Counted from the stretch's first letter, positions 17,117-64,000 are shown. The stretch is 64,000 bases of DNA from Acidimicrobiales bacterium (GCA_035532075.1 DATKRV010000003.1:9083-73082); one strand, 5' to 3'. Made by a program: numbers and translations. Notes: generated by a model from the sequence alone, not told the origin.

Positions 17117-17128
17117 CCAGCAACAGCA

Positions 17129-17595: not shown

Positions 17596-17769
17596 GTGTC
17601 GCGCATGACAAGCTTTTTCTTCCAAGCGGTTGCTCGTGATGGGCGGCTCGTCATGCTAGCGGAAGCCACGACGAAATGAACTTCTCAGCGAGATTCTGAA
17701 ATAAATCATGCCGCAAAAAGGTAATGCGTGAGGGTTCACCTGTCCCCGGAATTCTCCCACATCACACGG

Positions 17770-17841: not shown

Positions 17842-17920
17842 ATGAACCTTCTTGACTCTATCAGCACAAAATCAGGGATTTTTGCTCACGAGTTGGCACG
17901 AAGATTTGAGGTCCTTCGGG

Positions 17921-18586
17921 TTACCCCGTCGGCCATGTTGTGTGGCTGAACCCAATGATTCGACCGGCTGCAACTCCAGAGTCTTGGGTCCAAAGTGTGC
18001 CAAGTTCGTGAGTGAAGAATTGCTTGGAACCAACCGCGGAGTAGATGCGTTCGACGTTAAGTCCAGCTGCGCCTGCGGTGTGGGAGACCCAAAGGCGATC
18101 GATTGCATCTGTCACAATGACGACTTGGTGGGCGCGTGTAATGCGTTGGGCAGCTGAGCGAAGTGAGTCGTAGGTGGTTCCGCCAAAGCTTCCAGCAATA
18201 TCGGATCCCGTCACGCCATGGGCATGGAGCCATCTTGCTGCCGACATCAGACCATCATTGTACGCCGTGGATTTCCTGGCGCGAAACACAGACGCGAACC
18301 CTTCTCGCTGTGAAGAAGCAAGGATAATGCTTCTTGATATGTGGCTTTGGAAGAGTGAAAGAGTCGTCTGGAGACGGGATACCAGATCCGGCGTCGCGGC
18401 AATTCCAGATTGTTCTGGCACAAGGAGAACTATTGCACCCACTTTTTGCGATGAGACCGAACCAATGCCGATTGAGTTCTCCGCGAGAACAATCTGTACT
18501 CCGGTGACAAAGAGGTAGATGATTCCCGCAGTGAGGACGAGACTGAACAGCTTTATTGCCCACTTGATTGGCGCAAAGAGAAACAA
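17921..18586 (-). CDS. YdcF/DUF218-family membrane-anchored protein
   Basis: It has an N-terminal TM helix (LVLTAGIIYLFVTGVQIVL). The body reads IVLLVPE...IILASSQ...QVVIVTDAIDRLWVSHTAGAAGL, typical of the DUF218 fold. Confidence 0.5.
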   Translation of the reverse strand: MFLFAPIKWAIKLFSLVLTAGIIYLFVTGVQIVLAENSIGIGSVSSQKVGAIVLLVPEQSGIAATPDLVSRLQTTLSLFQSHISRSIILASSQREGFASVFRARKSTAYNDGLMSAARWLHAHGVTGSDIAGSFGGTTYDSLRSAAQRITRAHQVVIVTDAIDRLWVSHTAGAAGLNVERIYSAVGSKQFFTHELGTLWTQDSGVAAGRIIGFSHTTWPTG

Positions 18587-18593
18587 TCGACGT

Positions 18594-20015: not shown

Positions 20016-20121
20016 GAAGATTCTCTCTTGGATGTCGCGGTCGCGAGCAGTGGCGCAGGTGACATCTCGAACAATCTGGCCCTGTGAACAATCTGATCTT
20101 AGCGATCCCCGTTACAGACCA

Positions 20122-21471
20122 ATGTGCAGGTACGCTCATCGAGTGAACAAGTACCAACGGCGCCGAGGTGTCGCCGTTCTCGTCCTCCTTATGATGATTG
20201 CCGCTATTGGTTTTCGGTTCGTGTCGGTCAACAACGGTTCGACACTCAATTTTGCACAGATCGCGGCAAAGGCACAGCGGGCGAGACTCGCTGCGCTCGC
20301 CAAAAAAGAGTATTCGGTCATTGCCCGGGCAAAGCTGCTCGTCAATGTCGCGCTTCCGTCGCACGAGGGCGCGAGCGCTCCGGCGACTCCGGCAAAGCTC
20401 TTTGTCCGCCCGCTCATCCGACACCTCGTCGTTGGCTTTGTCCCCTACTGGACTGTGCCAACACTTGTCGCAGGCGGGCAGGCCTCAGTGGACATTACTG
20501 ACTCCACCGAACTTGTCTATTCGAGTGTCTGTGTGGGTAAAGCTGGGACGCTCATCACCTTGACGACTGACTGCGCGAATGGGATGGCCGGACTTGCCTC
20601 GCCAGCATTTGGCTCATTCATGCAACTCGCTCACATGAACGGTGTCCGGGTGCTGCTGAGCGTCCAAACGATTGATCCAGCCATCATCCACTCGCTCGGT
20701 ACTCATGCTGCAACCCTCGCACCAACACTCGAACAGAACCTCTCTGCTCTTGTCAGTACCTACGGCTTTGACGGTATCAACCTTGATATCGAGGGCAGGG
20801 GCCCGGCCAATCGCGTCGGATATGTGAATTTCGTGCGTGATTTCTCTCGTTCCTTGAAATCTGCGAACCCCTCGCTCGACCTGATGGTTGACACCTATCC
20901 GCAGTCGGCCGCAAGTTCGTCAGATTTCTATGATGTCGCGAGACTTTCGCACTACGTCGATCAATTCTTTGTCATGGCCTACGCAATGGAGAACGGGAAA
21001 CGCTCTTCGGCGAACAGCCCGCTCGGAAGTGCGACCCTTGGTTGGAGCGCTGCGCAGACGCTTGTGCAATATCGTGCGGTGGTTCCGGCGAACAAGATCA
21101 TCCTTGGTATGCCGTTCTATGGTCTGAACTTCGCAACGAAAACGAACTTGCCCGGATCGAAACTAGTCAGCGACGCTCCGAGTGCAAGGCTCTACAGCGC
21201 GGTGGTGGCGGCGGGACGACCGGCACTCTGGGATGTTGCCTCCGCGACGCCCTATAGCGTCTTTCGTGAGAGCGACGGTTGGCATCAGGACTGGTACGAC
21301 AACTCGGTCTCATTGGCGCTCAAGACCGCGCTTGCCCAGGTCTTTCACATCGCGGGAGTCGGTGTCTGGGCGATGTCCATGGAAGGGGGCGACCTGCAGA
21401 TGTTGAACGCGCTCACCGGGGAGAACACTCCACTAAAGCTGCCGCTCGCTACGTCGGTTTCGACCGGCTAG
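20122..21471 (+). CDS. glycoside hydrolase family 18 protein, membrane-anchored
   Basis: FDGINLDIEG matches the GH18 DxxDxDxE motif. There is an N-terminal anchor VAVLVLLMMIAAIGF. The start was moved to ATG 20122 because the ORF-track start overlaps gltX. Confidence 0.7.
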   Translation: MCRYAHRVNKYQRRRGVAVLVLLMMIAAIGFRFVSVNNGSTLNFAQIAAKAQRARLAALAKKEYSVIARAKLLVNVALPSHEGASAPATPAKLFVRPLIRHLVVGFVPYWTVPTLVAGGQASVDITDSTELVYSSVCVGKAGTLITLTTDCANGMAGLASPAFGSFMQLAHMNGVRVLLSVQTIDPAIIHSLGTHAATLAPTLEQNLSALVSTYGFDGINLDIEGRGPANRVGYVNFVRDFSRSLKSANPSLDLMVDTYPQSAASSSDFYDVARLSHYVDQFFVMAYAMENGKRSSANSPLGSATLGWSAAQTLVQYRAVVPANKIILGMPFYGLNFATKTNLPGSKLVSDAPSARLYSAVVAAGRPALWDVASATPYSVFRESDGWHQDWYDNSVSLALKTALAQVFHIAGVGVWAMSMEGGDLQMLNALTGENTPLKLPLATSVSTG

Positions 21472-50391: not shown

Positions 50392-51798
50392 GTGCCCCAC
50401 GTGACGAAAGAACTTGATCTCGGAAAGTACTCGCTCGGTTGGAGCGACGAAGAGGACTATGTCTTCAAGCCCCGCAAGGGCCTCAACGAGGAGATCGTCC
50501 GGGAGATGTCAAGGATCAAAGGCGAGCCAGAATGGATGCTGAAGTTCCGTCTCAGCGCCTACCGGCGTTTTCGCGAGAAGCCGATGCTTGACTGGTTCGC
50601 GACAAAGATGCCTGGACTTGATTTCGAGGACATCTACTACTACATCAAGCCAACCGCCGGTCTTGTCGACGCGTGGGAGGAACTCCCCGAGTCCGTGAAG
50701 AACACCTACGAGAAGCTCGGCATTCCCGAAGCCGAACGGAAGTACCTGGCCGGTGTGACCGCGCAGTACGAGTCAGAGGTGGTCTATCACCGCAACCGCG
50801 AGGATCTCGAAAAACTCGGTGTGTTGTTCAGTGACATGGACACTGCGGTGCGCGAGTACCCGGAGATCGTCCGCAAGTGGTTCGGCAAGATCATTCCGCC
50901 GAACGACAACAAGTTCGCAGCACTCAACTCGGCCGTGTGGTCGGGCGGCTCGTTCATCTACATCCCGCCTGGCGTCAAGGTCGACATGCCCCTGCAGGCG
51001 TATTTCCGGATCAATGCAGAGAACATGGGACAGTTCGAGCGCACGCTGATCATTGCCGATGAGGGCTCGCAGGTGCACTATGTCGAGGGTTGCTCGGCTC
51101 CGGTCTATTCGACCGACTCGCTGCACTCCGCAGTCGTCGAGCTCGTCGCTCTGCCGGGCAGCAGGATCACCTATACGACGATCCAGAACTGGTCGAACAA
51201 CGTCTATAACCTCGTGACCAAGCGTGCACGTGCAGAGACAGAGGCACACGTCGAATGGATCGACGGCAACATCGGGTCGCGTCTCACGATGAAGTATCCC
51301 TCGGTCTACCTGATGGGACCAAAGGCCTCCGGCGAGGTGCTCTCGGTTGCCTATGCGGGCGCCGGTCAGATCCAAGACACCGGAGCGAAGATGGTGCACT
51401 TTGCACCGGAGACGACATCGACGATCATCTCGAAGTCGATCTCCAAAGATGGCGGAATCACCACCTATCGCGGCAAGGTCCATGTGGATGAGGGCGCCAA
51501 GGGTGCGAAGTCCTTCGTGCGCTGTGATGCGCTCATTCTCGATGAGGAATCGACCTCAGAGACCAAGCCCTACATGGAGGTCGAAGAGCGGGACGCGCAG
51601 ATCGGGCATGAGGCGACGGTGTCAAAGGTCGGGGACGATCAGCTCTTCTATCTGATGAGCCGTGGGCTCTCCGAGACGCAGGCGACCTCGATGATCGTGA
51701 ACGGCTTCATCGAGCCGATCACAAGGACACTGCCGATGGAATATGCGGTCGAGTGGAGCCGACTGATCGAGCTGCAGATGGAAGGGTCGGTAGGCTGA
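50392..51798 (+). CDS. sufB: Fe-S cluster assembly protein SufB
   Basis: Contains ...[13 protein letters not shown]..., [23 protein letters not shown] and the SufB C-terminal beta-helix. The GTG at 50401 is an alternative start. Confidence 0.93.
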
Positions 51799-51847
51799 GA
51801 ACCTGCCTTTGACGTTACGTCAGCAGCACCGAGGAGGTCCGGCTCAC

Positions 51848-52216
51848 ATGCCGATGCGCGAGGAATGCAAGAACTATCAATCGAGGACGTATGCGAACGG
51901 CGAAGTAGCCCGTCTCTGCATCCTTGGTCTCGCTCCCGAGGCACCCTGGCGCTGTCCTGAGAACTGTCCGTCCTATGTCCGTCGTCTGGCGGACGCGGGC
52001 TGGACGCATGGAAGCCTGATCGAACCACCGATTGAAGACGAACCCGAGGGAGCAAATGTCGCTGAACTGCTCGACAATGCAGAGGACATCGTGAACGCGG
52101 TCGTCGCGTCAACGCGCGAAGAGGTACTCGCCGCCCGCGATGAACGAGAGGGCGACTCATTCGGCCGCGGTCTGCGTCGATTATTTCGCAAGAACAATCC
52201 AAAGAGAGATCAATGA
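51848..52216 (+). CDS. small Cys4 protein of unknown function inserted between sufB and sufD
   Basis: The product reads MPMREECKNYQSRTYANGEVARLCILGLAPEAPWRCPENCPSYV..., followed by an acidic/basic tail. GAGGAGG lies 10 nt upstream. Its stop overlaps the sufD ATG (ATGA). Confidence 0.5.
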   Translation: MPMREECKNYQSRTYANGEVARLCILGLAPEAPWRCPENCPSYVRRLADAGWTHGSLIEPPIEDEPEGANVAELLDNAEDIVNAVVASTREEVLAARDEREGDSFGRGLRRLFRKNNPKRDQ

Positions 52217-53523
52217 ACCTTTCGGACCGAAGATTTTCCGCCGAGTCCCTCGAGGCACTCGGAGGTTCAGAATGGGTCGCGCGCTATCGAGCATCGGCAC
52301 TCGCCCGACTGAGCGAAGTCCATGAGGCGACGTCGACGGCCGAGGACTGGCGTTATGGCCGTATCGACGAGCTCGATCTCTCGAGTTATGGCGTGGTCTT
52401 GCCACGTATCCATGAGGCAATTCCGATTAGCTCGGCGTCGCGCGCGTTTCTCGATGACTTTGGAGACCATGGGGCGCTCGTGCATGTGATCGACGGGGTG
52501 CTCGTCTCGGTCGAACTTCGCGATGAGATCAAGCACTCCGGTATCACGATCGGTTCGATCGCGGACTTTGACCTGCCGATCGAGGAGTTCGGTTCGCTGC
52601 TCAGTCTTGTCGACGAGCCGTTCGGAGTACTCAATGACGCCTTTGCGCCAGCGGCGACGGTGATCGATGTCCCCGCGAACTCGGCATTCGAGCCTCCGAT
52701 CGTGGTGATATCAGAGCTTTCGGAGGCCGCGGTCGAGGGACTCTCCTACGCGCGTCTGTTCATCCGTCTTGGTGTCTTCGCACAGGCCTCCGTTGTGGTC
52801 TTTCAGACCTCTCTCGATGGAAGACTCCTTCATGTTCCGGTGGTTGAGACCTTTGTCGGAGAGTCGGCCCATCTGCGCCTCGACCTCGTCCAGCAACTCG
52901 CCGAGCGATCGTGGCTGCTCGGTTACCAGCTTGCAGAGATCGGGCGCGATGCAACGCTGAGCGCGTTCTCGGCATCGCTCGGTGCGGACTACTCGCGTCT
53001 CTACTCCAGGGCCGCGCTTGCCGGTGAGGGCGGCGAGAGCCGTCTCTTTGCCGCCTACCTTGGAATTGCAACCCAGGTTCAAGAGTTCCGCACCTTCCAG
53101 GATCATCTCGTCGGTCGGACCAAGAGCGAACTGATCTTCAAAGGAGCGGTCGCGGACCACGCACGTTCGGTGTATTCGGGCATGATCCACATGCGAAAGG
53201 GAGCTCGGCGCGCGGATGCCTCCCAGACGAACCGGAATCTCGTACTGAGCGAGGGCGCACATGCCGATTCGGTTCCCAATCTCGATATCGACGAGAACGA
53301 CGTGCACTGCAGCCACGCCTCAGCGGTGGGACCAATCGATCCAGATCAGCTCTTCTATCTCGAATCGCGCGGAATTCCCCCGGAGGTCGCGGAACGACTC
53401 ATCCTGCTTGGCTTTTTCGATGATCTGTTGTCCAGGGCGAACAATGCGGGATGCGCAACCTATATCCGTAAAGATGTCGAGCTCCGGCTCGCGGATTCGA
53501 TCTATGCGCAGCTCGCATCATGA
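52213..53523 (+). CDS. sufD: Fe-S cluster assembly protein SufD
   Basis: The product is 436 aa. It contains ...QTNRNLVLSEGAHADSVPNLDIDENDVHCSHASAVGPIDPDQLFYLESRGI.... Confidence 0.9.
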   Translation: MNLSDRRFSAESLEALGGSEWVARYRASALARLSEVHEATSTAEDWRYGRIDELDLSSYGVVLPRIHEAIPISSASRAFLDDFGDHGALVHVIDGVLVSVELRDEIKHSGITIGSIADFDLPIEEFGSLLSLVDEPFGVLNDAFAPAATVIDVPANSAFEPPIVVISELSEAAVEGLSYARLFIRLGVFAQASVVVFQTSLDGRLLHVPVVETFVGESAHLRLDLVQQLAERSWLLGYQLAEIGRDATLSAFSASLGADYSRLYSRAALAGEGGESRLFAAYLGIATQVQEFRTFQDHLVGRTKSELIFKGAVADHARSVYSGMIHMRKGARRADASQTNRNLVLSEGAHADSVPNLDIDENDVHCSHASAVGPIDPDQLFYLESRGIPPEVAERLILLGFFDDLLSRANNAGCATYIRKDVELRLADSIYAQLAS

Positions 53524-53843
53524 GTGAGGTTGGATTCGTGGATCTGTGTGGTGCCGAAGAGATGGCACTCGGGGAGGCGAGAAGGTTCATGCTCGAGGTT
53601 GGGCCGGTCTGTCTGGTCCGGTGCAACGGGGGGTTCCGCGCGATCCTCGATGTCTGTAGCCATGAGGACTTTCCGCTCTCCGAAGGAGAGGTCGAACTCG
53701 AAGAGTGCCTGATTGAATGCTGGAAGCACGGCAGTATGTTCTCGCTCGATACCGGTGAGCCGATGTCGTTCCCTGCCACACAGCCCGTTCCGGTCTATGC
53801 GGTCCTGATCGAAAACGGACGGGTGTTGGTGAAGGCCCAGTGA
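53520..53843 (+). CDS. Rieske [2Fe-2S] domain protein (suf-associated)
   Basis: It has the CxH and CxxH pairs VCSHED and ECWKHGSMF. Its start and stop overlap the neighbouring genes by 4 nt each. Confidence 0.8.
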   Translation: MSEVGFVDLCGAEEMALGEARRFMLEVGPVCLVRCNGGFRAILDVCSHEDFPLSEGEVELEECLIECWKHGSMFSLDTGEPMSFPATQPVPVYAVLIENGRVLVKAQ

Positions 53844-54625
53844 GTACGCTTCGTATCGCTGGACTTCGTGCCGCAATCGGTTCGAAAGAGGTCCTCAGGG
53901 GAATCGACCTCGAGATCTGCTCGGGTGAGATCCACGCGATCATGGGGCCAAACGGCGCTGGCAAGTCCTCGCTCGCCAATGTCCTGATGGGCAATCGCGC
54001 CTATCTGGTGACGGAGGGATCCGTCACCCTCGACGGGGTCGATCTGCTTTCGCTGAGCACCTATGAGCGCGCCGGTGCCGGGCTGTTCCTTGCCTCGCAG
54101 AGTCCGATGGAGATTCCCGGTGTCCCCCTCCTTTCGCTGTTGCGAGAGGCGCTGCTCGCCCAGGGACGCGCCGACGAGGCCGAGGAGGAGTCATTGCTCG
54201 CGCGCCTTGACAAAGAGGCGCTCTCGATCGGTGTACCCGAGGCGATGCTCGGGCGCGCGGTCAATGTCGATGCCTCAGGTGGTGAGAAGAAGCGACTCGA
54301 GACCCTCCAGCTCGCGATCCTCCAGCCACGGATCGCGCTCTTGGACGAACTCGACTCGGGCCTCGATGTCGATGCACTGCGCGATGTCGCGCGTCGCATC
54401 GAACGACAGGCACACGCACCTGAACCCGGAACGATTGCCATCGGGGTCCTCGCGATCACGCACTATCGCCGCCTGCTCGACGAGCTCCATCCTGATGGGG
54501 TGCATGTCTATGTGAACGGCAGGATCGTCAAGTCGGGCGGTCTTGAGCTCGCAGATGAACTTGAACGCGATGGTTACGCTGCCTACACCGAGGATGAGCC
54601 GGTCTCCGATTTCATCTTCCCATAG
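53840..54625 (+). CDS. sufC: Fe-S cluster assembly ATPase SufC
   Basis: Contains GPNGAGKSSL (Walker A), SGGEKKR (ABC signature) and LLDELDSGLD (Walker B). Confidence 0.95.
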   Translation: MSTLRIAGLRAAIGSKEVLRGIDLEICSGEIHAIMGPNGAGKSSLANVLMGNRAYLVTEGSVTLDGVDLLSLSTYERAGAGLFLASQSPMEIPGVPLLSLLREALLAQGRADEAEEESLLARLDKEALSIGVPEAMLGRAVNVDASGGEKKRLETLQLAILQPRIALLDELDSGLDVDALRDVARRIERQAHAPEPGTIAIGVLAITHYRRLLDELHPDGVHVYVNGRIVKSGGLELADELERDGYAAYTEDEPVSDFIFP

Positions 54626-54650: not shown

Positions 54651-55058
54651 GTGATGATGCATCTCTTAGCGCCGGATCCGAACGCGCACCTTGGCACGCT
54701 GCTCAGCTTCCATCAGGTGTGGGGCTATCTCGTCATCACCGGGAACGGTCTCGCCGGGCTCTGGGCCCTCGTTGCCAACTATCGCGAGAAACTTCGTACG
54801 AGAGCACTCTGGTGGTTTACCTTCTTCGTCGAGGCGGCGATATTTGTCCAGATTGGCTCCGGACTTGGTCTTGTCGAGGGCGAACACGCGAGGCCGCTCG
54901 CGTTCCATCCGTTCTACGGGTTCTTCGCCGTCGTCGTCGTCGGGTTCCTCTTTGCCTACCGACGGCAGCTGTTCGCGCGTCGCTACCTGCTCTATGGATA
55001 CGGCGGTTTGTTTTTGATGGGCATCGGAATCCGCGCGCTCATCACTGCGCACGCCTGA
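54651..55058 (+). CDS. hypothetical membrane protein (about 4 TM helices)
   Basis: This is a 135-aa hydrophobic ORF (VWGYLVITGNGLAGLWALVANY..., WWFTFFVEAAIFVQIGSGLGLV...). No family was recognised. Confidence 0.45.
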   Translation: MMMHLLAPDPNAHLGTLLSFHQVWGYLVITGNGLAGLWALVANYREKLRTRALWWFTFFVEAAIFVQIGSGLGLVEGEHARPLAFHPFYGFFAVVVVGFLFAYRRQLFARRYLLYGYGGLFLMGIGIRALITAHA

Positions 55059-55424
55059 CGACCTTCTCGGAGATGCCGCTCCCAGGTGCTGATTTTGAGT
55101 ACTGGAGTACCAGGTTCCGGGAGACCCCTTTCTCGTTTCTCGCGCCTGGGAAACGCACGATTCCGATCTCTTGAGTCGTGATGAGAGGTCGCCGCCCCGA
55201 TCTTCACTGACGTGTCGGCGCTCATTGCGTCGCGCGTTGAGCGATGGGCGATAATACGGCTTGCGAATGGCGATAACCGGGTAGCCTTCGTGGCCGTCCA
55301 CCGGATTGCAACCGCCCCCCAACACTTCCCGCTAGTATCTGCGAAAGCCGGATGATGCCCCGGCGGGCCACAAAGCCCGAACTGCCCAGCGAGTTGGGTT
55401 GATGGCCTCTACGCGAATGTCGAC

Positions 55425-56408
55425 ATGCGTGGAGGTCGCGTCTTGAGTCAGACACAGCTGGCAGCGCCTGTCATCCAGGCTTTGCAGGATCTCACGATCC
55501 TGTTCGGTGCCCCGTTGGTGAGCGGTGTCATCGCGCATGTCGAAGGTCGCATTCAAGGCCGTCGTGGTCCGCGAGTCTTTCAACCCTACTACGACCTAGC
55601 AAAACTCTTTCGCAAAGAGACTGTCGTCCCCGAAGGATCGAGTTGGGTCTTCCTCGTCGGACCTATCATCGCGTTCTCCTGCTATCTCATCGTCCCGCTT
55701 CTCATCCCGGTGCTCACAACCTATGGACTGCCCCTCGGCTACATGGGCGACATCTTGGGAGGTGGCTTCATCCTCGCCCTCGCCGGGTTCTCGGTCGCGA
55801 TCGCCGGCACGGAGTCAGGTGCTCCGTACGCACAGCTTGGGGCCAGCCGGGCGATGACCTTCGGCGCGCTCATCGAGCCGACGATCCTCTTCGTCGTCTT
55901 TGCCGTTGGGATCATCACAGCAACCGACCTTCCCTATGCGCTCGCTGCGACCGTGCGTTCCTCGACGGGCGAGATTGTCCGCCCGGCGCACATTCTCGCG
56001 GCGATCGCTTTCTTTCTTGTGGTACTCGCCGATACCGGCAGGATCCCGGTCGAGACGCACTCGGGAACCTTGGAGTTCGGAATGATCGATGAGGGTCGGA
56101 CCCTCGAGCACTCGGGCGCGCCGTTCGCATTGCTCAGGTGGGGATCGACGATGAAGCAGCTGATCCTCTACACGATCCTCATCGATGTCTTCGTCGCGCC
56201 GTGGGGCCTTGCCACAGATCGGCGACCAGCTTCAGTCGTCCTTGCCATTCCATCTCTTCTCGGGAAGGCCATGGTTGTCGGCTGCATATTCGCGATTATC
56301 GACAACTCCTTCTCGAAGTTGCGTCTGTTCAAGATCACCGAGTTCCTCGCCGCGGCGTTCCTTCTTGCCGTACTCGCCGTACTCGTCTTCTACCTGGGGG
56401 GTGGCTGA
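55425..56408 (+). CDS. NuoH/HycD/HyfC-like membrane subunit
   Basis: Contains VEGRIQGRRGPRVFQPYYDLAKLFRKE and multiple TM helices. The product is 327 aa. Confidence 0.85.
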   Translation: MRGGRVLSQTQLAAPVIQALQDLTILFGAPLVSGVIAHVEGRIQGRRGPRVFQPYYDLAKLFRKETVVPEGSSWVFLVGPIIAFSCYLIVPLLIPVLTTYGLPLGYMGDILGGGFILALAGFSVAIAGTESGAPYAQLGASRAMTFGALIEPTILFVVFAVGIITATDLPYALAATVRSSTGEIVRPAHILAAIAFFLVVLADTGRIPVETHSGTLEFGMIDEGRTLEHSGAPFALLRWGSTMKQLILYTILIDVFVAPWGLATDRRPASVVLAIPSLLGKAMVVGCIFAIIDNSFSKLRLFKITEFLAAAFLLAVLAVLVFYLGGG

Positions 56409-57076
56409 TGCCGCACGCCGCACCTTCCACCTTCACGGGTGCCGTAGACGTCATCGCCGTGCTCGTCTTGCTGACGGAGTTCGCGATGCTGCGCGCCCCG
56501 ATGCTGCGTTCACAGGTACGCCTCTACGCGTTCCAGTCACTCGTTGTTACCGCGCTCGCAATCGTCGTCGCGGCGACCCGTCACATCGACGAGATCTATG
56601 TCCTCGCGGCGCTGTCGTTCATCTTGAAGGTCATCATCGTGCCGCGAATCGTGCTCCGTCTGCTTTCGCGCGCCGAGGTCAGTCTCGCCGGCAGCTCGGC
56701 CTTCAGCGTCGCCACGATGACATTGATCGCGATCGTGATGTCGGTCTTCGCGTTCTTCTCGGTCGGCGCACTGCACCTGCAGTCCACAGCGCTCCCATCG
56801 GCGGCTCTCGCGATCTCCGTCGCGGTGGTGCTCGTCGCGTTCGTGCTCATCATCTTGCGTTCCGACGTCGTCTCCCAGGCGATCGGATTCTTCTCGCTCG
56901 AGAACGGTGTCTCAGTCGCAAGCCTTGTCGTGGCCTCCGGGCTCCCCCTTATCGTCGATGTCGCGTTCCTGTTCGATCTCCTCGTCGCGGTCGTCGTCTT
57001 CGGCGTGTTGATGCGGATCCACCACGGCCGCACGAAAACACTGTCCACTGACTCGCTCGATCGGCTGAAGGGCTAG
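56408..57076 (+). CDS. HyfE-like (NuoK-related) membrane subunit
   Basis: The ATG overlaps the upstream TGA (TGATG). The 222-aa hydrophobic product has AIGFFSLENGVSVASL, typical of hydrogenase-4 component E. Confidence 0.78.
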   Translation: MPHAAPSTFTGAVDVIAVLVLLTEFAMLRAPMLRSQVRLYAFQSLVVTALAIVVAATRHIDEIYVLAALSFILKVIIVPRIVLRLLSRAEVSLAGSSAFSVATMTLIAIVMSVFAFFSVGALHLQSTALPSAALAISVAVVLVAFVLIILRSDVVSQAIGFFSLENGVSVASLVVASGLPLIVDVAFLFDLLVAVVVFGVLMRIHHGRTKTLSTDSLDRLKG

Positions 57077-57080: not shown

Positions 57081-58553
57081 ATGAACCACGTGCTGCTTGC
57101 CATCGTGATTGTTCCCGTCGTCACGTCGATCGCCACCTGGTGGACCCCTCCAGCGATCTCGAAGGTAGTCACGATCGGTTCGGGGATCGCACTGTTCCTC
57201 CTCGCGCTGGCCCTCATTCCGAGTGCGACCGCTCACAGCTACCTCGCTGTTGGGTCGGTGCTTCGGGTCGATGCGCTCTCAGTCGTCTTCCTGGTGCCGA
57301 CAACGTTTCTCTACGCGACGACATCGATTTTCGCGGCGGGCTACCTCCACCTTCCAGAGGGCGAGGCTGGACGGCGCTATGCGCGACGTTTTTTCGTGGG
57401 ACTTAACGTCTTCTGCTGGTCGATGGCCGTCGCACCGCTCGTGAATGGGTTGGCGCTGTTGTGGGTGATGATCGAGGTGACGACCGTCATCTCTGCGCTG
57501 TTAGTCGCGATTGACGATACCGACGGTGCGACCGAGGCGGCTTGGAAGTACGTCATCCTCGCGTCGCTCGGGCTTGGCATCGCGCTCTTCGCGACGATCA
57601 TCATGTACTACGCGGGAACCCGCTTCTTCGGTTCCTCTTACGACCCCTCCTACAACAAGCTCCTCTCGGGCGCACACGCCTTCCCGAAGGACGTCGTCCG
57701 GCTCGCGGACGTGCTCGCGGTACTTGGCTTTGGAACGAAGATGGGGCTCGTCCCGGTCCACACGTGGCTACCCGATGCACATTCCGAGGCGCCGACACCG
57801 ATCTCAGCACTGCTATCGGGGGCGCTGCTCGCGACAAGCTTTTATGCCATCCTTCGTTTCTTCCAGGTGAGTGTGCGTTGCCTCGGGCCGGCCTTTCCGA
57901 GGAACGTGCTGTTGATCTTCGGACTCGCTTCACTCGTTCTAGCTGCGTTTTACCTGCTCAGCCAACGCGACCTGAAGCGATTGCTTGCCTATTCGAGCGT
58001 CGAGCACATGGGGATCCTCGCGATCGGGATGAGCTTTTCCGCTCCGCTTGCGATCGTCGGCGTGCTGCTGCACGTCATCGCGCACGGCGCGGCGAAGGGC
58101 ACGGCGTTCTTCGGGGCGGGCTCGGTCGCCCGCAAGTTCAAGTCGAAGGACATGGCTCGAATACGCGGCGGTGTGGGACTGTTGCCCTGGAGCGGCCCAA
58201 TGCTCGTCCTCGCGGTGCTCGCCCTCTCCGCGATGCCGCCGTTTGGGATCTTCCGGAGCGAATTCCTCATCGTCGCCGGCGGGCTCTCGGATCCACGCGA
58301 TGCCATCGCCGCAGTGCTCGTCGTGTTCGTCACCGTTGCGTTTTTTGGCCTGTCGTGGTTCACGACGAAGACGATGCTCTCTCCCGTGCCCGAGCGGGAG
58401 AGGCTGCGACTCGGACGCGGCGAGACGAGCTGGCTCATCGTCGTCGCGATGGCGGTCGGACTCGTCGGACTCGTCATTCTCGGCGTTCACGTGCCCGGAC
58501 AGCTGAACGAACTCCTCCAGCACGCCGCGAGCCAGCTCGAGGTGGCGCGATGA
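57081..58553 (+). CDS. NuoN/NuoM/HyfF-like antiporter-type subunit
   Basis: The 490-aa product contains GLVPVHTWLPDAHSEAPTPISALLSGALL and LAYSSVEHMG. Confidence 0.85.
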   Translation: MNHVLLAIVIVPVVTSIATWWTPPAISKVVTIGSGIALFLLALALIPSATAHSYLAVGSVLRVDALSVVFLVPTTFLYATTSIFAAGYLHLPEGEAGRRYARRFFVGLNVFCWSMAVAPLVNGLALLWVMIEVTTVISALLVAIDDTDGATEAAWKYVILASLGLGIALFATIIMYYAGTRFFGSSYDPSYNKLLSGAHAFPKDVVRLADVLAVLGFGTKMGLVPVHTWLPDAHSEAPTPISALLSGALLATSFYAILRFFQVSVRCLGPAFPRNVLLIFGLASLVLAAFYLLSQRDLKRLLAYSSVEHMGILAIGMSFSAPLAIVGVLLHVIAHGAAKGTAFFGAGSVARKFKSKDMARIRGGVGLLPWSGPMLVLAVLALSAMPPFGIFRSEFLIVAGGLSDPRDAIAAVLVVFVTVAFFGLSWFTTKTMLSPVPERERLRLGRGETSWLIVVAMAVGLVGLVILGVHVPGQLNELLQHAASQLEVAR

Positions 58554-60052
58554 CTATGGATGGGGCCGCGGTCGAGGTGAGGCCCGAGCTGTTCGCGACC
58601 GAGGTGGCAGGCATACTGGGCAGCACACACCGACTCGCCGCGCTGTTCGCGATGCCACAGGCGCGTTGCGTCCGTCTCGTTGCCGTCCTCGCCGGACAGG
58701 GGCGGCTTATGGTGATTGCGGCAACACTTGCCGAGGGGACGACCTCGTATCCGTCGGTCACCGCGCTCGTGCCCGGTGCCGACTGGTATGAACGGGAGAT
58801 CCACGATCTCTATGGGATCGAGGCGATCGGCCATCCGGACCTCGATCCGCTCGTTCTCCCTCTCTCACCCGGCTCGATCCGGCCGCGACCGGGATCGGGT
58901 GACCAGGTCGATCGACTCGTGCCCGACAGTGCACCGCTGCCAGCACTTGTGAGCGGCGAGGGCATGTTCACGATTTCCTATGGACCCGTGAGGTCGGGGG
59001 TCTTCGAGGCGATCGAGTACGTCATCGAGACTCCGGGGGAGGACTTCCCCCGTATCCAGACGCGTCCGCACTACAAGCACCGCGGGGTCGAGTTCGGCTT
59101 TGTCGGCCGAAGCGTCGAGGATGGTGTCTTGCTCGCCGAGAGGGTCGAGGGCGTCGCGACGATCGCGCATGCCACCGCGTATTGCGAGGCGATCGAACGC
59201 ATCTCGGGAGCCGAACCTCCACCCGCTGGTCAATTCGTCCGGGTTCTCCACGCGGAACTCGAGCGCATCGCCAATCACCTCGATTCGACGATCCGCCACA
59301 CGGAGGCGGCTGGGCAGGCAGTCGCCTTCGCGCGGCTCACGCTCCACAAGGAGCGCCTCATGCGACTCCGGGCAAAGCTGTGCGGCAATCGTTTCGGTCG
59401 TTGCGTCGTCGTTCCCGGCGGCGTCTGCGGAGCACCGTTGATCGAAGGGGTCGAGATCCTCGCCTCGGTCGACCACCTCGAGCGAGATATCCGTGCCGAT
59501 CTGAAGCTGTTGATGGCAACGCCGTCATTCCTCGACCGTTTGCGCGACACCGGGATACTGCCACCTTCGATCCTCGCGGTTCGCGGGGCCCTCGGTCCGC
59601 TCGCGCGTGGCTCTGGCATCGAAGAGGACGTGCGACGCTCACGACCCTACGGCGGTTACCGGAATCTCGGCTTTAGCTCGGCAAGCGGCGTGGAGGGTGA
59701 CGCGCTTGCCCGCCAACTCGTCCGCAATGACGAGATCTGGGGGAGTTTCCACCTCATTCGCCAGGCACTTGACGAGCTGGACCACCTGGCAGGGGTCGCG
59801 TGGTCTGCTCCCATGAGGACAGTGGCAACGGGGACATTGAGCGGAGAGGCGTTCGGGTGGGCGGAGGCGCCGCAGGGGGAGGTTCTCTATCTTGTACGCG
59901 TCGAGGACGGAGTGCTCACCCGGGTGAAACAACGTTCCGCCTCGTTTCACAACCTGGCGCTGTTCACCGCGGCCTTCCCGAAGGACATCACCACCGACTT
60001 TGCCTTCATCGAAGCGAGCTTCGGACTTTCGATTGCGGGAGCGGCCGGCTGA
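58550..60052 (+). CDS. NuoC-NuoD / HycE / HyfG-like large subunit lacking the [NiFe] cysteine ligands
   Basis: The start has an ATGA overlap with the upstream gene. The NuoC-like part reads ADWYEREIHDLYGI. The NuoD/large-subunit part reads ISYGPVRSGVFEAIEYVIETPGEDFPRIQTRPHYKHRGVE. The L1 position reads RVEGVATIAH and the C-terminus reads FIEASFGLSIAGAAG. Confidence 0.85.
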   Translation: MTMDGAAVEVRPELFATEVAGILGSTHRLAALFAMPQARCVRLVAVLAGQGRLMVIAATLAEGTTSYPSVTALVPGADWYEREIHDLYGIEAIGHPDLDPLVLPLSPGSIRPRPGSGDQVDRLVPDSAPLPALVSGEGMFTISYGPVRSGVFEAIEYVIETPGEDFPRIQTRPHYKHRGVEFGFVGRSVEDGVLLAERVEGVATIAHATAYCEAIERISGAEPPPAGQFVRVLHAELERIANHLDSTIRHTEAAGQAVAFARLTLHKERLMRLRAKLCGNRFGRCVVVPGGVCGAPLIEGVEILASVDHLERDIRADLKLLMATPSFLDRLRDTGILPPSILAVRGALGPLARGSGIEEDVRRSRPYGGYRNLGFSSASGVEGDALARQLVRNDEIWGSFHLIRQALDELDHLAGVAWSAPMRTVATGTLSGEAFGWAEAPQGEVLYLVRVEDGVLTRVKQRSASFHNLALFTAAFPKDITTDFAFIEASFGLSIAGAAG

Positions 60053-60870
60053 TGCCGTGGATGACGCGGGGTATCCGCGAGGGAATCGTCACGAGCCGAT
60101 ATCCACATCGGCCAGACGGATACGGACCGCTCTTTCGAGCCACCGTGTCGGTGTCTGGCGGCGAAGACGTCGCGCGGCTCGACGCACCTGAGGCAGTAGC
60201 CGTCGCGCAGCTGTGCCCGACCGGCGCAATCAAAACAGAGGGAGGGATCCGGGTGGACCGCGGCCTTTGCGTCGCCTGCGGTCGTTGTGTCGCGGCTCGA
60301 CCGGAGATGTTTTCCTTTGATGCCGATTTCGAGGTTGCCGCACTCCGTCGGGATCTGCTTGTCGTCTCGCGTCACGAGGAGGGGCAAAACGATCTCGCTG
60401 AACTGCGCGAGGGACTCGCGAGACGCGTCCGCGCGCTTCGCCGTTCGATCCATATCCGACACATCGACTGCGGTTCCGATGGATCTGAGGAGTGGGAGAT
60501 CGCGGCGCTCACCAATCCCTTCTACGACGTGCAGCGCCTTGGGATCTTCTTCACCGCGAGCCCTCGTCATGCTGATCTCCTTCTCGTCACGGGGGCCGGA
60601 GCGACCGGGATGCTCGGCGCACTCCATCGCACCTTTGACGCGATGCCGACGCCGAAACTGATCATCGCCATCGGGAGCGAGACGGCGAGCGGCGGTCTGC
60701 TTGCGCGGAGCTACGCCACGCGAGGTGGTATTGCCGATGATATCTCCGTCGATGTCTTCGTTCCGGGTTCGCCGCCGAGTCCCTTCGCGATTTTGCACGG
60801 AATTTTGCTCGCGATCGGTCTTATGCCCGTCCGTGGCAGCGATGCGACCCAAGCTGAGAGGTCATCGTGA
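60052..60870 (+). CDS. fusion of a NuoI/HyfH-like ferredoxin domain and a NuoB/HycG/HyfI-like small-subunit domain, most Fe-S ligands missing
   Basis: The start has a TGATG overlap with the upstream gene. The N-domain reads ...QLCPTGAI...CVACGRCVAARPE. The C-domain reads IDCGSDGSEEWEIAALTNPFYDVQRLGIFFTASPRHADLLLVTG...IAIGSETASGG...VFVPGSPPSP. Confidence 0.8.
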   Translation: MPWMTRGIREGIVTSRYPHRPDGYGPLFRATVSVSGGEDVARLDAPEAVAVAQLCPTGAIKTEGGIRVDRGLCVACGRCVAARPEMFSFDADFEVAALRRDLLVVSRHEEGQNDLAELREGLARRVRALRRSIHIRHIDCGSDGSEEWEIAALTNPFYDVQRLGIFFTASPRHADLLLVTGAGATGMLGALHRTFDAMPTPKLIIAIGSETASGGLLARSYATRGGIADDISVDVFVPGSPPSPFAILHGILLAIGLMPVRGSDATQAERSS

Positions 60871-62891
60871 ACGCGGCGCTCCTCGTCGCGGCTTTTGGCT
60901 GTTTTTGCGCGGGTGCGCTCGCGGACATCGTCCTTGTGAGTGCCAATCGCGCCCTTCGTCCGCTGCCGTACGGACTCGCGTTCGTCGGATCGGGACTGTG
61001 TCTTGCGGTTGGCATTCACGTCATCGCGGATGGAGCGCAGATGTACTCGCTCGGATCCCTGCTCGGCATTGGGACGACGACGGTCCGCCTCGACGATCTG
61101 GCGGGACTGTTCCTCACCCTGTTATTCGCGATCGGGGTCGCGGTGTCGGCATGTTCGATTACTTGGATCCGACGGGAAGAGAGTCCGCGTCGGCGTGGTC
61201 TCGGGGCGGCTTATTGCACGCTGCTTGCTTCGGTCGCGGCGATCCTTCTCGCCGCGGACGCGTTCACGTTCCTGTTTTCCTGGGAGATGCTCACCCTCTC
61301 GTTCTACGTGCTTGCCGGAGTGAACCGGGCCAACCGGCGCGAGGCACACGCGGCATGGCTGACGCTCGTCACCGGCAAGGTGAGCGGCGCGTGCCTCCTC
61401 TTTGGCTTTCTGCTCCTCGTCGGTCGAAGTGGGAGCTTTCTGCTCAGCGCCTGGCACGGTGTGGCGCCCGGGACGGTGCATGACATCGCCTACGCGCTGA
61501 TCGTCGTTGGCTTATCGACCAAGCTCGGCGTTGTGCCGTTGCAGGCGTGGATGCCGGTCGGCTACTCGGCAGCGCCTGGACCGACACGTGCCGCGATGGC
61601 GGGCATCGCGGCGAACGTCGGCGTCTATGGCCTGTGGCGCATCCTGTCGATCCTTGGACGCCCTCCGGTCTGGCTCGCCATCGCCGTGCTGTTGACCGGT
61701 GGCATCACCGCGCTGTTGGGCATTGCGTTCGCGGGAGTGCAACAGCGCCTATCGCGCGTTATCGCCTACTCGAGCATCGAGAACGCCGGCATCATCATTA
61801 CCGCCTTCGGTGTCGCGCTCGCCGGCGCGGTCACTTCGAACGCGACGCTCGAGGCGGCGGGACTGCTCGCGGCGAGTCTCCACGCTGTCGCGCACGCGAT
61901 CTCGAAGTCCGTGCTGTTTGCCGCTTCGGCGAACGTCGCGCAGGCGGTCGGGAGCGACGATCTTGAACGACTTCGCGGGATCGGGCGCTCCCTTCCCCTA
62001 TCGGGATGGACCTTTGGCGCGGGTGCATTGACGCTCGCCGGTCTGCCCCCGACGGTCGGATTCGTCTCCGAGTGGTTCGTCCTCGAAGCCCTGATGCAAC
62101 AGTTTCGCCTGCCGGGCCTCGCACTTCGTCTCGCGATGGCTGGTGCAGGCGCGCTCATCGCACTCACCTCCGGACTCGCGGCACTCGCCTTTGTGCGGAT
62201 CCTTGGCCTCGTCTTTCTTGGACCTCCGATGCCCGAGGTCGACCGTCGTTCGGAGAGAGGATTCTTCGGTCGTGCTGGCCTCGTCTCCCTCGGCACGAGC
62301 TGTTTCGCGCTCGCCGCGATCTCCCCACTTGAGATCCGTTTCCTTGCTCGCGGACTATCGCCAGTGGTCTCAAAGACTCTGGTCGAGCATGCACTCAAGT
62401 CGCCGTGGGTTCTCCAGCCGACCTATGCCGGATTCTCGATCCTTTCGCCCTCATGGCTCTCCGTCGTGATGCCAATCCTCTTCGCAGTGGTAACGGTCGC
62501 GGCCGTCGCGGTCTCTCGCGGACGCTATTTCAAGATTCGTCGTGCCCCGGCCTGGCACTCTGCGACCTCTGGAGTGCACGGTCCGTCGAACTACACCGCG
62601 TTCGGTTTCGCGAATCCGCTCCGTCATGTGCTCGCGAACATTCTTGGCACGCGGCGAGAGGCGATACTCCTCGAAACCGTTGCGGACAATACGAGAGGTC
62701 GGGGACGCGTCGAGTACACGACGAGCATCGTCGAGCCAGTCGAGGCCTACCTCTATCGACCGATCCGGATCGGAGCGCTGGCACTCGCGCGGCTTGTAAA
62801 ATCTCTCCAGTCTGGACGTCTCGAAGCATACGTTGCCTACATGCTCTTCGCGCTTGTAGTCGCGCTCGCGGTCACCGCGGGACTTCGATGA
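60867..62891 (+). CDS. NuoL/HyfB-like antiporter-type subunit
   Basis: The start has a GTGA overlap with the upstream gene. The 674-aa product contains FLFSWEMLTLSFYVL and VPLQAWMPVGYSAAPGPTRAAMAGI. Confidence 0.85.
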   Translation: MNAALLVAAFGCFCAGALADIVLVSANRALRPLPYGLAFVGSGLCLAVGIHVIADGAQMYSLGSLLGIGTTTVRLDDLAGLFLTLLFAIGVAVSACSITWIRREESPRRRGLGAAYCTLLASVAAILLAADAFTFLFSWEMLTLSFYVLAGVNRANRREAHAAWLTLVTGKVSGACLLFGFLLLVGRSGSFLLSAWHGVAPGTVHDIAYALIVVGLSTKLGVVPLQAWMPVGYSAAPGPTRAAMAGIAANVGVYGLWRILSILGRPPVWLAIAVLLTGGITALLGIAFAGVQQRLSRVIAYSSIENAGIIITAFGVALAGAVTSNATLEAAGLLAASLHAVAHAISKSVLFAASANVAQAVGSDDLERLRGIGRSLPLSGWTFGAGALTLAGLPPTVGFVSEWFVLEALMQQFRLPGLALRLAMAGAGALIALTSGLAALAFVRILGLVFLGPPMPEVDRRSERGFFGRAGLVSLGTSCFALAAISPLEIRFLARGLSPVVSKTLVEHALKSPWVLQPTYAGFSILSPSWLSVVMPILFAVVTVAAVAVSRGRYFKIRRAPAWHSATSGVHGPSNYTAFGFANPLRHVLANILGTRREAILLETVADNTRGRGRVEYTTSIVEPVEAYLYRPIRIGALALARLVKSLQSGRLEAYVAYMLFALVVALAVTAGLR

Positions 62892-62907: not shown

Positions 62908-63378
62908 ATGACGACGAGACACGATCTGCTGCTCGGAGGTCGATTGCGGCGCCTCCTCGTCTGTTTCGGCGGGTTGCCAGAATCCATGAAGGCGATCGAG
63001 CTCTTGCTCGATCTCGGCAAGGCGCTCGGTGCCCAACTGACGATCTTCAGTGTCCTCGCCGGAGCTGCACACCTTGAGTCCACTGAAGTGCAACATGCCG
63101 CAGAGCACACCGCGCGTGAACATCTCGGTGCGCAGCTCACCGGTATTCTGCGCTGCGCCGCGGACTCCGGTGTGCAATTTCGCGAAGTGAATGTCATCGG
63201 TGGCGATCCTGGCGAGGAGATCACTCGGTACGCGACCGAGCATGGATTCGACCTTGTGGTCATCGGAAGTCACGGGCAATATCGCGTCGCCCACGGCGGT
63301 CTCGGTCGAGTCGTCGAGCGGCTGCTGCGACGTTCGAAGTGCCCGGTGCTCGTCGCTCCCGCTCGCGCGGACCGCTAG
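62908..63378 (+). CDS. universal stress protein (UspA family)
   Basis: Contains HGFDLVVIGSHGQYRVAHGGLGRVVERLLRRSKCPVLVAP. Confidence 0.8.
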   Translation: MTTRHDLLLGGRLRRLLVCFGGLPESMKAIELLLDLGKALGAQLTIFSVLAGAAHLESTEVQHAAEHTAREHLGAQLTGILRCAADSGVQFREVNVIGGDPGEEITRYATEHGFDLVVIGSHGQYRVAHGGLGRVVERLLRRSKCPVLVAPARADR

Positions 63379-63387: not shown

Positions 63388-64000
63388 ATGCTCATCGTTG
63401 TCGATGGAGCATGCGATCTCCCGCCGGCTCTGCGTGATTGTGAGGAGGTCGTCGTCGTACCGTTTCACGTCCTTCTCGCGGGTTCGCCGTTCGTCGGCAA
63501 AGACGACGAATTCGACGCGCTGCTCTGCTCAGGTGCCAAGCTGAGCAGTGCGCCGCCAGGTGACGAATTGTTCACCGCTGCTTTTGGTGACCATCGGGAC
63601 ATCCTTGTCGTGACCGCCTCGACCTATTTGAGCGCTGCGGTAGAAGCTGCAACCTTCAGTGCGAGACGCGCTTTGGCGGATGTGCGTATCGTTGATTCGC
63701 GTACCTTTAGCGCCGGAAGCGGTCTCGTGGTCAACGCGCTTCGCGAAGCGATCGCCGATGGGATCGCGGTCTCCGAACTTGGCAAGCTCTGCGGGCAGAT
63801 CGTCGAGGCGACCCACACCTACGCGATCGTGGATCGACCGCAGGTGCTTGTTGGACACGGGCTACTTGGAAAGGTGAGGCTGAGTCATCTCTTTTGCCAT
63901 CCGGTGCTTGGAATCCGGGACCGAGCCCGTCTCTTGCGTCAGACGCGGTCTCGCAAACGGGCAATTGCCTGGCTGATCCACCACTTGCGCGAAACCCTCG
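63388..64000 (+). CDS. DegV-family (fatty-acid-binding) protein, partial (runs off the window end)
   Basis: The ATG at 63388 gives MLIVVDGACDLPPAL...VVVPFHVLLAGSPFVGKDD...SSAPPGDELFTAAF...DILVVTASTYLSAAVEAA...VRIVDSRTFSAGSGLVVNALREAIADG. The frame stays open to 64000. Confidence 0.65.
   Translation, partial: MLIVVDGACDLPPALRDCEEVVVVPFHVLLAGSPFVGKDDEFDALLCSGAKLSSAPPGDELFTAAFGDHRDILVVTASTYLSAAVEAATFSARRALADVRIVDSRTFSAGSGLVVNALREAIADGIAVSELGKLCGQIVEATHTYAIVDRPQVLVGHGLLGKVRLSHLFCHPVLGIRDRARLLRQTRSRKRAIAWLIHHLRETL

Follow-up and report, generated by a model that had tools for sequence, protein, structure and literature searches.

In a 64,000-nt stretch of DNA from an Acidimicrobiales bacterium (GCA_035532075.1, DATKRV010000003.1:9083-73082; hereafter the window, with positions counted from its first nucleotide), we describe a translationally coupled six-gene operon encoding a relative of respiratory complex I and of the group 4 [NiFe]-hydrogenases that, judged by alignment, has lost most of its redox cofactors. 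The large subunit has none of the four cysteines of a NiFe site, and a protein in which a NuoI-type ferredoxin domain is fused to a NuoB-type domain keeps ligands that would suffice for one [4Fe-4S] cluster out of the three that such a module should have. An aptamer of the fluoride-riboswitch type precedes the operon, which is predicted to be switched by fluoride. Our best explanation of the whole is a fluoride-induced, complex-I-like ion translocator whose electron wire has been cut, and not a hydrogenase; we give this reading a probability of roughly 0.5. Its statements on the identity and the regulation of the complex are highly probable, and its statement on the mechanism of transport is tentative.

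The six genes all lie on the plus strand, with stops and starts that overlap or nearly abut, and their order, H-E-F-G-IB-B, is kept strictly in every complete related locus:

55443..56408 (+), NuoH/HycD-like membrane subunit (Pfam NADHdh, E 2.7e-36), conserved in 66 orthologues
56408..57076 (+), HyfE-like membrane subunit (NCBIfam NF008556 'hydrogenase 4 membrane subunit', E 1.2e-27); its ATG overlaps the upstream stop
57081..58553 (+), HyfF-like antiporter-like subunit (Pfam Proton_antipo_M, E 2.9e-48)
58550..60052 (+), NuoC-NuoD/HycE-like large subunit (Pfam Complex1_49kDa, Complex1_30kDa and NiFeSe_Hases); its start overlaps the previous stop (ATGA)
60052..60870 (+), NuoI/HycF-type plus NuoB/HycG-type fusion, ATG to TGA, 272 amino acids (aa)
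60867..62891 (+), HyfB/NuoL-like antiporter-like subunit (NCBIfam 'hydrogenase 4 subunit B', E 9.5e-121, below cut-off); GTG start

The fusion gene shares nucleotides with both of its neighbors: its ATG with the stop of the large-subunit gene (TGATG), and its TGA with the GTG at which the HyfB-like gene starts (GTGA). For the NuoH-like gene, the mechanically called open reading frame (ORF) begins at ATG 55425, yet the Shine-Dalgarno (SD) sequence GGAGG is found at 55431-55435; the true start is probably the in-frame TTG at 55443, 3' of the SD, and orthologues start with GTG or TTG at equal spacing. The HyfF-like subunit also matches NCBIfam 'hydrogenase 4 subunit F' (E 6e-105) below the cut-off, as do all NCBIfam matches of the operon's proteins. 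In the membrane arm, the Glu of transmembrane helix (TM) 5, the Lys of TM7, the Lys of HxxxK and the Glu of TM12 are conserved to at least 95% in both the HyfF-like and the HyfB-like subunits, and the loops of the NuoH-like subunit are conserved among orthologues.

The fusion gene divides into the following parts:

~60052-60350 (+), ferredoxin domain
~60385-60435 (+), linker helix
~60440-60825 (+), NuoB-like domain

Pfam places Oxidored_q6 (PF01058) at residues 147-252 (E 2.4e-17; 63.3 bits against a curated cut-off of 27) and single-cluster Fer4 models at residues 66-99. The best solved relatives of the NuoB-like half are Escherichia coli HycG (7z0s_G, E 2.2e-27) and Pyrococcus furiosus MbhJ (6cfw_J, E 1.8e-26), followed by complex I PSST/NuoB. 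When the N-terminal 110 residues alone were compared with the PDB, only generic ferredoxin matches were obtained (NuoI at E 0.7). A profile of the N-terminal domain of fused relatives, however, matched HycF (7z0s_F, E 4.9e-23) without a break from profile position 3-101 to HycF 5-108, as well as E. coli NuoI (1.9e-17) and MbhN (3.4e-15), and this homology includes the N-terminal TxxYP segment. Owing to these specific matches, the label 'I-B fusion' is correct, and the protein is a HyfH/HycF-type plus HyfI/HycG-type fusion. An AlphaFold2 model (mean pLDDT 74, with the N-terminus and the linker 94-108 poorly defined) resembles the folds of HycG, MbhJ and complex I PSST/NuoB at a Foldseek probability of 1.00. 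An earlier sequence-only reading of this DNA had described a 272-aa ORF joining a ferredoxin domain to a NuoB-type domain, and Pfam, profile and Foldseek results all bear this out. A 301-aa antisense ORF (59947..60852, minus strand) lies opposite the fusion gene; long antisense and overlapping ORFs are numerous across the window, as is typical of DNA with ~60% G+C, and neither this one nor the others are regarded as genes.

In a 2x[4Fe-4S] ferredoxin fold, the cysteine of the Cys-Pro in motif 1 and the three cysteines of motif 2 together bind one cluster. The fusion does not contain two complete CxxCxxCxxxCP motifs (eight cysteines, two clusters): the first CxxCxxC is absent, C55 in the ..LCPTGAI remnant of motif 1 and C73, C76 and C79 of motif 2 remain, and the closing Cys-Pro of motif 2 is now R83-P84. 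In the NuoB-like half, HycG DCGGCNGCEIEI and MbhJ GSCNGCDIEI align to DCGSDGSEEWEI of the window, and residue by residue DCGGCNGCE (HycG) and GSCNGCD (MbhJ) stand against DCGSDGSEE, the CxxC pair having become D143 and E146. Further, GACGNSGG is aligned to GSETASGG, where the ligand cysteine is E210, and PGCPP to PGSPP, where it is S240. The four ligand cysteines of a proximal (N2-equivalent) cluster, i.e., CxxC or CC, GxC and PGCPP, are consequently not found, and no orthologue has a cysteine at these positions. C140, the cysteine of 'DCG', occupies a non-ligand position and is Ala in 77 of the 121 sequences introduced below. The codons concerned are:

60214-60216 (+), C55, retained ligand
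60268-60270 (+), C73, retained ligand
60277-60279 (+), C76, retained ligand
60286-60288 (+), C79, retained ligand
60478-60480 (+), D143, former proximal/N2 ligand
60487-60489 (+), E146, former proximal/N2 ligand
60679-60681 (+), E210, former proximal/N2 ligand
60769-60771 (+), S240, former proximal/N2 ligand

By these alignments the distal ferredoxin cluster and all four proximal ligands have been lost. The alignment upholds what the sequence-only reading had claimed for the ferredoxin half, namely that the first CxxCxxC is gone, the final Cys-Pro has become Arg-Pro and exactly four cysteines are left. For the NuoB half, it had stated that all four ligands are replaced by Asp, Glu or Ser in a well-conserved framework; both points agree with our results, as D143, E146, E210 and S240 take the ligand positions and PRHAD, VDVxxPG.PP and E-x-E are kept. 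A proper alignment with HycG and MbhJ brings back no cysteines at the cluster positions.

Conservation was assessed with a search of ~5.8 billion proteins, which returned 4829 relatives at E <= 0.001. Two sets were examined: the window protein with its 120 nearest database homologues (121 sequences), and the orthologues from 80 Acidimicrobiales-related genome loci plus the window (81 orthologues). According to length and domain content, the best 120 of the 4829 relatives are all fused; they share 58-77% identity and come from independent assemblies, mostly metagenome-assembled genomes (MAGs) of Acidimicrobiales. A homologue at 64% identity (P0036) is labelled 'Thermoplasmata archaeon' by NCBI among actinobacterial matches, which is probably a binning error. 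Across the 121 sequences, the four ferredoxin cysteines, D143 and E147 are invariant (121/121 each) and S240 is found in 120; position 146 is Glu in 107 and Asp in 12 (119/121), and position 210 is Asp in 116 and Glu in 5 (121/121), so that the Glu of the window at 210 is the minority state and Asp that of most orthologues. The genome loci give the same picture, with all 81 orthologues fused, the four cysteines in 81/81, D143 in 81/81, Glu or Asp at 146 in 79/81, Asp or Glu at 210 in 81/81 and S240 in 78/81. In a scan with one genome per species, the signature peptides GSDG[SAT][ED]EWE or VDV[FW]VPGSP were detected in 517 genomes. Strong purifying selection acts on the four cysteines and on the residues at the former ligand positions (Asp, Glu/Asp, Asp/Glu, Ser). 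Among representatives at 50% identity, two populations are seen: 64 of 150 have C-C-C-C at the four positions, including fused proteins and some with complete ferredoxin motifs, and a second population is of the D-[ED]-[DE]-S type. From this we conclude that the fusion predates the loss of the cluster and that the loss is a derived, selected state. The fusion and the exchange of cysteines for acidic residues are therefore conserved in orthologues, and an indel or assembly artefact, which the sequence-only reading had named as a possible source of the fusion, is ruled out by its presence in hundreds of independent assemblies, with more than 100 independent metagenomic proteins and 80 genome loci examined for it.

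The large subunit was aligned to MbhL and HycE. Its L1 motif reads RVEGVATIAH, with E203 and A206 in place of the cysteines, and its C-terminus reads FIEASFGLSIAG in place of DPCxxCxxR, with Ser and Gly in their place; the L1 (RxCGxCxxxH) and L2 (DPCxxCxxR/H) cysteines of group 4 [NiFe]-hydrogenases are accordingly not present. Of 74 large-subunit orthologues, 60 have E-A-S-G at the four NiFe positions, none has more than one cysteine there, and all 74 have E203. The motifs GPVRSGvfE, KHRG, AERxEG, HAELER and FIEASFGxSxAG recur among them. The Tyr and His of the complex I quinone site are likewise absent from this NuoD-like partner, the Tyr position being Gly and the His-loop reading GPVRSGVFE, and the cluster contains no nuoEFG genes. 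Hence three marks of respiratory complex I, the N2 cluster, the NuoD Tyr/His and the NuoEFG module, are all wanting. Clustering of the flanking ORFs within ~4 kb of the 80 loci revealed neither recurrent hyp or fdhF genes nor recurrent genes for an electron donor or acceptor (fdh, nuoEFG, ferredoxin).

Energy-converting-hydrogenase-related (also Ech-hydrogenase-related; Ehr) complexes were reportedly named in Geobacter sulfurreducens by Coppi in 2005 and are said to have been surveyed by Marreiros et al. in 2013. A group-4-hydrogenase-like cluster without NiFe ligands is Ehr by definition (PMC6349859, PMC10284858, PMC7304191), and the class is also defined by NuoH-like and Mrp antiporter-like subunits (PMC6349859, PMC10284858, PMC4378227). 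Since the window complex combines group-4-like subunits lacking NiFe ligands with NuoH-like and antiporter-like subunits, it is of the Ehr type. The same six-subunit make-up (NuoC-D and NuoI-B fusions, HyfB, HyfF, NuoH, HyfE) has been described in Margulisbacteria, Firmicutes and thermophiles (PMC6349859 Suppl. Note 4, which cites Marreiros 2013); the I-B fusion itself is therefore not new. Six-gene versions are reported from Sulfobacillus, where the clusters have no assigned function (PMC4378227), and from Margulisbacteria, Firmicutes and comammox Nitrospira (PMC6349859; PMC4378227; PMC10284858). The window family shares with Ehr the large subunit without NiFe cysteines, the set of NuoH-, HyfE-, HyfB- and HyfF-like subunits and the C-D and I-B fusions, but differs in that the four proximal ligands have also been lost, to conserved Asp, Glu/Asp, Asp/Glu and Ser, and one ferredoxin cluster is left. 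In the literature consulted, to which Marreiros 2013 and Coppi 2005 did not belong, no description of proximal-cluster loss in Ehr or of its control by a fluoride riboswitch was found, and nothing relevant linking fluoride to hyf or hydrogenase-4 was found either.

Compared with other known systems, both halves of the fusion find their best sequence and fold matches in formate hydrogenlyase (FHL)/hydrogenase-4 of E. coli (HycF and HycG, HyfH and HyfI; 7Z0S) and in the membrane-bound hydrogenase (MBH) of P. furiosus (MbhN and MbhJ; 6CFW), which also have a similar operon logic and similar membrane subunits. There, however, the two are separate proteins and three [4Fe-4S] clusters wire ferredoxin or formate dehydrogenase to the NiFe site, whereas in the window they form a single protein, ligands for just one cluster are left, the NiFe site has been lost, and hyp and fdhF genes are missing from the vicinity. 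NuoI (TYKY) and NuoB (PSST) of complex I have homologous folds and share the framework motifs PRHAD, VDVxxPG.PP and E-x-E, but the window complex is without the N2 ligands, the quinone-site Tyr/His and the NuoEFG module. Mrp antiporters resemble it in their antiporter-like subunits with a conserved Glu/Lys network, and would work by the same principle if the complex is independent of redox reactions; in contrast, Mrp has no peripheral module of NuoB-, D-, H- and I-like proteins, and equivalents of MrpE, MrpF and MrpG are absent from the window complex.

Upstream of the NuoH-like gene, two elements of the messenger RNA are of interest:

55348..55412 (+), fluoride-riboswitch-like aptamer, variant with an extra hairpin, 5' of the NuoH-like gene
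55427..55436 (+), SD region, with GGAGG at 55431-55435; can pair with the aptamer tail

At the gathering threshold, an Rfam scan of the whole window yielded two tRNA genes only (17523-17595 and 17770-17841, both on the minus strand) and no riboswitch. A permissive scan gave a full-length match to the fluoride riboswitch family RF01734 at 55353-55418, ending just 5' of the first gene; its E value was 0.25 when 9.6 kb were scanned and 0.01 for a scan of 401 nt. P1 of the element is CCGG-AUGAUGCC-CCGG (CCGG pairing with CCGG) and is followed by an inserted 16-nt extra hairpin, CGGGCCACAAAGCCCG; the sequence after it, GAACUGCCC-AGCGAGUU-GGGUUGAUGGCCUCUAC, closely follows the family consensus over its conserved 3' half, with P3 formed by GCCC/GGGU and the pseudoknot by GAUGCC with GGCCUC. 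The aptamer thus resembles RF01734 (the crcB motif) in P1, P3, pseudoknot and the conserved ..AACyGCC..GGCUGAUGGCCUCUAC core, but most Acidimicrobiales copies differ from it by a variable, covarying hairpin between P1 and the AAC linker, and it is due to this hairpin that most of them score below the Rfam gathering threshold. All 65 loci with 150 nt or more of sequence upstream, the window included, carry this element 5' of the NuoH-like gene. At the same position, the most distant two have insertion-free forms, and these score above gathering (43.4 bits in L058, a Pseudonocardiaceae MAG, and 47.5 bits in L080). In an alignment of 30 sequences, the structure of P1, extra hairpin, P3 and pseudoknot has 94.5% of cells paired and 7 compensatory pairs; its covariation score was reached by none of 500 shuffles, and slid controls fall to 29-55% paired. 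The arrangement ..CUACGCn..GCGUGGAGG, covering the aptamer tail and the SD region, is conserved across loci, and in the centroid fold the tail (55405-55414) forms a 10-bp helix with GCGUGGAGGU (55427-55436, containing GGAGG). On this folding model, formation of the pseudoknot upon ligand binding should free the SD, and we infer a translational ON switch.

The genes around the operon in related loci fit a fluoride regulon. Recurrent flanking genes of the 80 loci, as grouped by ORF clustering, encode universal stress protein (Usp), paired CrcB fluoride channels, DUF190, enolase, histidine-phosphatase, DegV and MutS-like proteins, and RF01734 scored above gathering in the flanks of five of the seven loci scanned first. 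Canonical aptamers precede crcB, histidine-phosphatase, MutS-like and NUDIX-like genes, and in three loci MutS-like genes have the variant form 5' of them as well; the two forms thus serve a single regulon. Taking together the conserved P1, P3, pseudoknot and core, the covariation and this context of crcB, DUF190 and MutS-like genes, the element is a putative fluoride riboswitch. The association also has a precedent: already when the crcB motif was first described, genes 'encoding formate hydrogen lyase' were among those it preceded, and its regulon neighbors are crcB, enolase, MutS-like and 'formate hydrogen lyase' genes (PMC2864571). A review of 2024 counts FHL among the commonest riboswitch-associated enzymes, read as a fermentative shift, and places Na+/H+ antiporters as the second commonest associated class after exporters (PMC11139923).

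Some genomes contain a second, paralogous cluster, Ehr-B, which is 30-45% identical and adjoins the first in loci L004, L054, L063, L065, L069 and L074:

L054, 13276-19106 (-), Ehr-B
L004, 539-5079 (-), Ehr-B
L074, 187-4875 (-), Ehr-B
L069, 7237-12559 (+), Ehr-B
L065, 12909-16051 (+), Ehr-B
L063, 13072-13881 (+), Ehr-B

The large subunit of Ehr-B is also without NiFe cysteines (ERAEG...; IIEASFWLTVAG). Its small subunit keeps the four cysteines of the proximal cluster (GSCAACE, GACPLGG, PGCPP), and its one-cluster ferredoxin domain is apparently a separate gene. Canonical-type fluoride-riboswitch-like elements are located upstream of Ehr-B in L063, L065, L069 and L074. Relative to four Ehr-B sequences, the large subunit of the window family has gained the conserved basic residues H210, H237, R252, H253, R265, H269, K270, R287, R335 and R395; in a search for residues that might neutralize the carboxylates, R130 was the only family-specific basic residue inside the small subunit.

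How, then, might such a complex work? In MBH, FHL and complex I, it is the proximal cluster that links the clusters of the ferredoxin subunit to the active site. Without it, by general structural knowledge, the surviving cluster would be separated from the former active site by more than 20 Å, i.e., beyond physiological tunneling; because of this distance, electron transfer is unlikely to drive a reaction at the large-subunit site, and the complex should be neither a hydrogenase nor a formate hydrogenlyase. The redox reaction at the former active site is most likely no longer used. The membrane arm, on the other hand, should still move ions, as every key charged residue of the complex I/Mrp type is kept. 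The most likely role would be that of a fluoride-induced proton or cation translocator, Mrp-like in principle, with two antiporter modules and a NuoH-type channel. Fluoride enters the cell as HF, acidifies the cytoplasm and leaves via Fluc at the cost of membrane potential (PMC11139923). Under this double burden, acidification by HF and a potential drained by export, the translocator would help the cell to regain its cytoplasmic pH and its ionic balance. Conserved carboxylates now stand at the two sites where metals were once bound (D143, E146 and D/E210; E203 and the Glu of FIEASF). They could form a proton- or cation-binding polar network feeding the NuoH-like subunit; alternatively, they may bind a structural metal or form salt bridges to the newly acquired basic residues of the large subunit. 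As for the one cluster that survives, it may be structural or act as a redox sensor.

Several observations weigh against the reading as a redox-independent translocator. We infer ion translocation and its direction from conserved residues only, the AlphaFold2 model of the fusion is of moderate confidence, and the window aptamer scores 18.3 bits against a gathering threshold of 34 for RF01734, although this low score is explained by the inserted hairpin, which the Rfam model aligned as P1. The surviving cluster is presumably N6b, adjacent to N2, an assignment drawn from the wiring of complex I and from parsimony; relatives that keep N2 but have one ferredoxin cluster retain the same ferredoxin cluster as the fusion, which fits it. 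Moreover, if the complex were an antiporter of the purely secondary kind, there would be no obvious need for a strongly conserved peripheral arm with an invariant [4Fe-4S] site. Finally, the riboswitch-preceded Ehr-B keeps its proximal cysteines, so redox chemistry may still matter in the wider family; it is mainly because this N2-retaining paralogue is under the same control that we do not dismiss a redox function there. The complex could still be a redox enzyme, in which the Asp/Glu/Asp/Ser pocket holds a mononuclear or dinuclear Fe or Mn or another redox-active or Lewis-acid metal center that relays electrons from the surviving cluster to a new Glu/Arg/His active site in the large subunit and so drives the pump. 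In favor of this, the replacement residues are potential metal ligands and nearly invariant, and the four cysteines of the surviving cluster do not vary, which is what a continued entry of electrons would predict; polar motifs (GPVRSGvfE, AERxEG, FIEASFG) are conserved where the NiFe site used to be, and Ehr-B retains the proximal cluster. Nevertheless, we consider this unlikely, given that genes for a donor or an acceptor (fdh, nuoEFG, ferredoxin) do not recur nearby and that the quinone-binding Tyr/His of complex I and the NiFe cysteines are all absent. A relay built from three carboxylates and a Ser would also lack precedent; to our knowledge, no electron-relay site of this composition exists at the proximal position.

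The fluoride riboswitch holds F- with three Mg2+. By analogy, the complex might handle fluoride itself, with Mg2+ or Ca2+ in the pocket capturing F- (or HF) and the antiporter modules coupling its expulsion to the proton-motive force. Riboswitch control in 65/65 loci, the co-location of crcB and DUF190 and the many conserved carboxylates at the two former metal sites speak for this, but Fluc channels are already encoded next door in the same genomes, and the complex showed no sequence feature that would be specific to the binding of anions; we regard the idea as improbable. Its broader form is no more probable: the complex would have been converted to a non-redox, fluoride-inducible device whose carboxylate clusters bind cations, possibly Mg2+/Ca2+ with fluoride, and whose antiporter modules draw on the proton-motive force for the export of fluoride/HF or of the protons that go with it. 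Were this true, both the Ehr class and the 'formate hydrogen lyase' entry of the fluoride regulon would gain a function. Database names, and likewise publications on the fluoride riboswitch ('formate hydrogen lyase' in PMC2864571 and PMC11139923), would make the operon one for a true formate hydrogenlyase or hydrogenase-4, which is very improbable. Gene content and order are hyf-like and the best NCBIfam matches are hydrogenase-4 subunits B, F and E, yet all of these are sub-cut-off, hyp and fdhF neighbors do not recur, the proximal ligands are absent in every orthologue and no orthologue has more than one cysteine at the NiFe positions; a true hydrogenase was rejected, as the window complex is without NiFe and proximal-cluster ligands. 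Last, in a single sequence the loss of cofactor ligands would resemble the decay of a pseudogene cluster, or the fusion could stem from an assembly error or indel. Here the frames are intact and translationally coupled, fusion, motifs and gene order are kept in 80 loci and in more than 100 independent metagenomic proteins at 55-77% identity, and the upstream regulatory RNA is conserved; decay and fusion artefact are contradicted by these conservation data, were rejected, and retain hardly any probability.

Downstream of the operon, the window continues with one further gene of the recurrent set:

62908..63378 (+), universal stress protein (Pfam Usp, E 1.8e-25), found 3' of the cluster in ~26 related loci

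It is followed by a DegV-family gene (63388-64000) that is cut by the end of the window, in the same order as in locus L067. There, a 'fluoride island' (3013-20752) comprises a riboswitch with a histidine phosphatase, the Ehr operon, Usp, DegV, DUF190, a riboswitch with CrcB-DUF190-CrcB, a dynamin-like GTPase and two MutS-domain-V proteins. Directly upstream of the Ehr operon in the window lies a Suf operon for Fe-S assembly (50392-54625), whose ORFs, named from their translations, are SufB-like (50392-51798), SufD-like (52213-53523), a small Rieske-like protein (53520-53843) and a SufC-like ATPase (53840-54625); the position of suf genes beside the cluster is not conserved in other loci. Between suf and the riboswitch, 54651-55058 (+) encodes a predicted membrane protein of 135 aa with no Pfam match, which is not present in related loci.

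Ehr complexes are widespread relatives of complex I and of the membrane-bound hydrogenases and have been without an assigned function since 2005, and 'formate hydrogen lyase' has been listed among the commonest fluoride-riboswitch genes since 2010 and read as a fermentative shift. New in the present analysis, measured against the literature consulted, are the link between an Ehr operon and the fluoride riboswitch and the loss of the proximal cluster within the Ehr class. In Acidimicrobiales at least, the riboswitch-controlled 'formate hydrogen lyase' is, by its sequence, an Ehr complex without a NiFe site and, here, also without the proximal cluster; the cofactor loss is operon-wide and selected, extending beyond the fusion subunit alone. 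With fluoride as a defined inducer and a physiological setting of HF influx, acidification and loss of membrane potential, the role of Ehr becomes testable. The complex may, moreover, represent a natural case in which the architecture of complex I has stayed under selection after its electron wire was cut, and would thus bear on how far coupling depends on redox chemistry.

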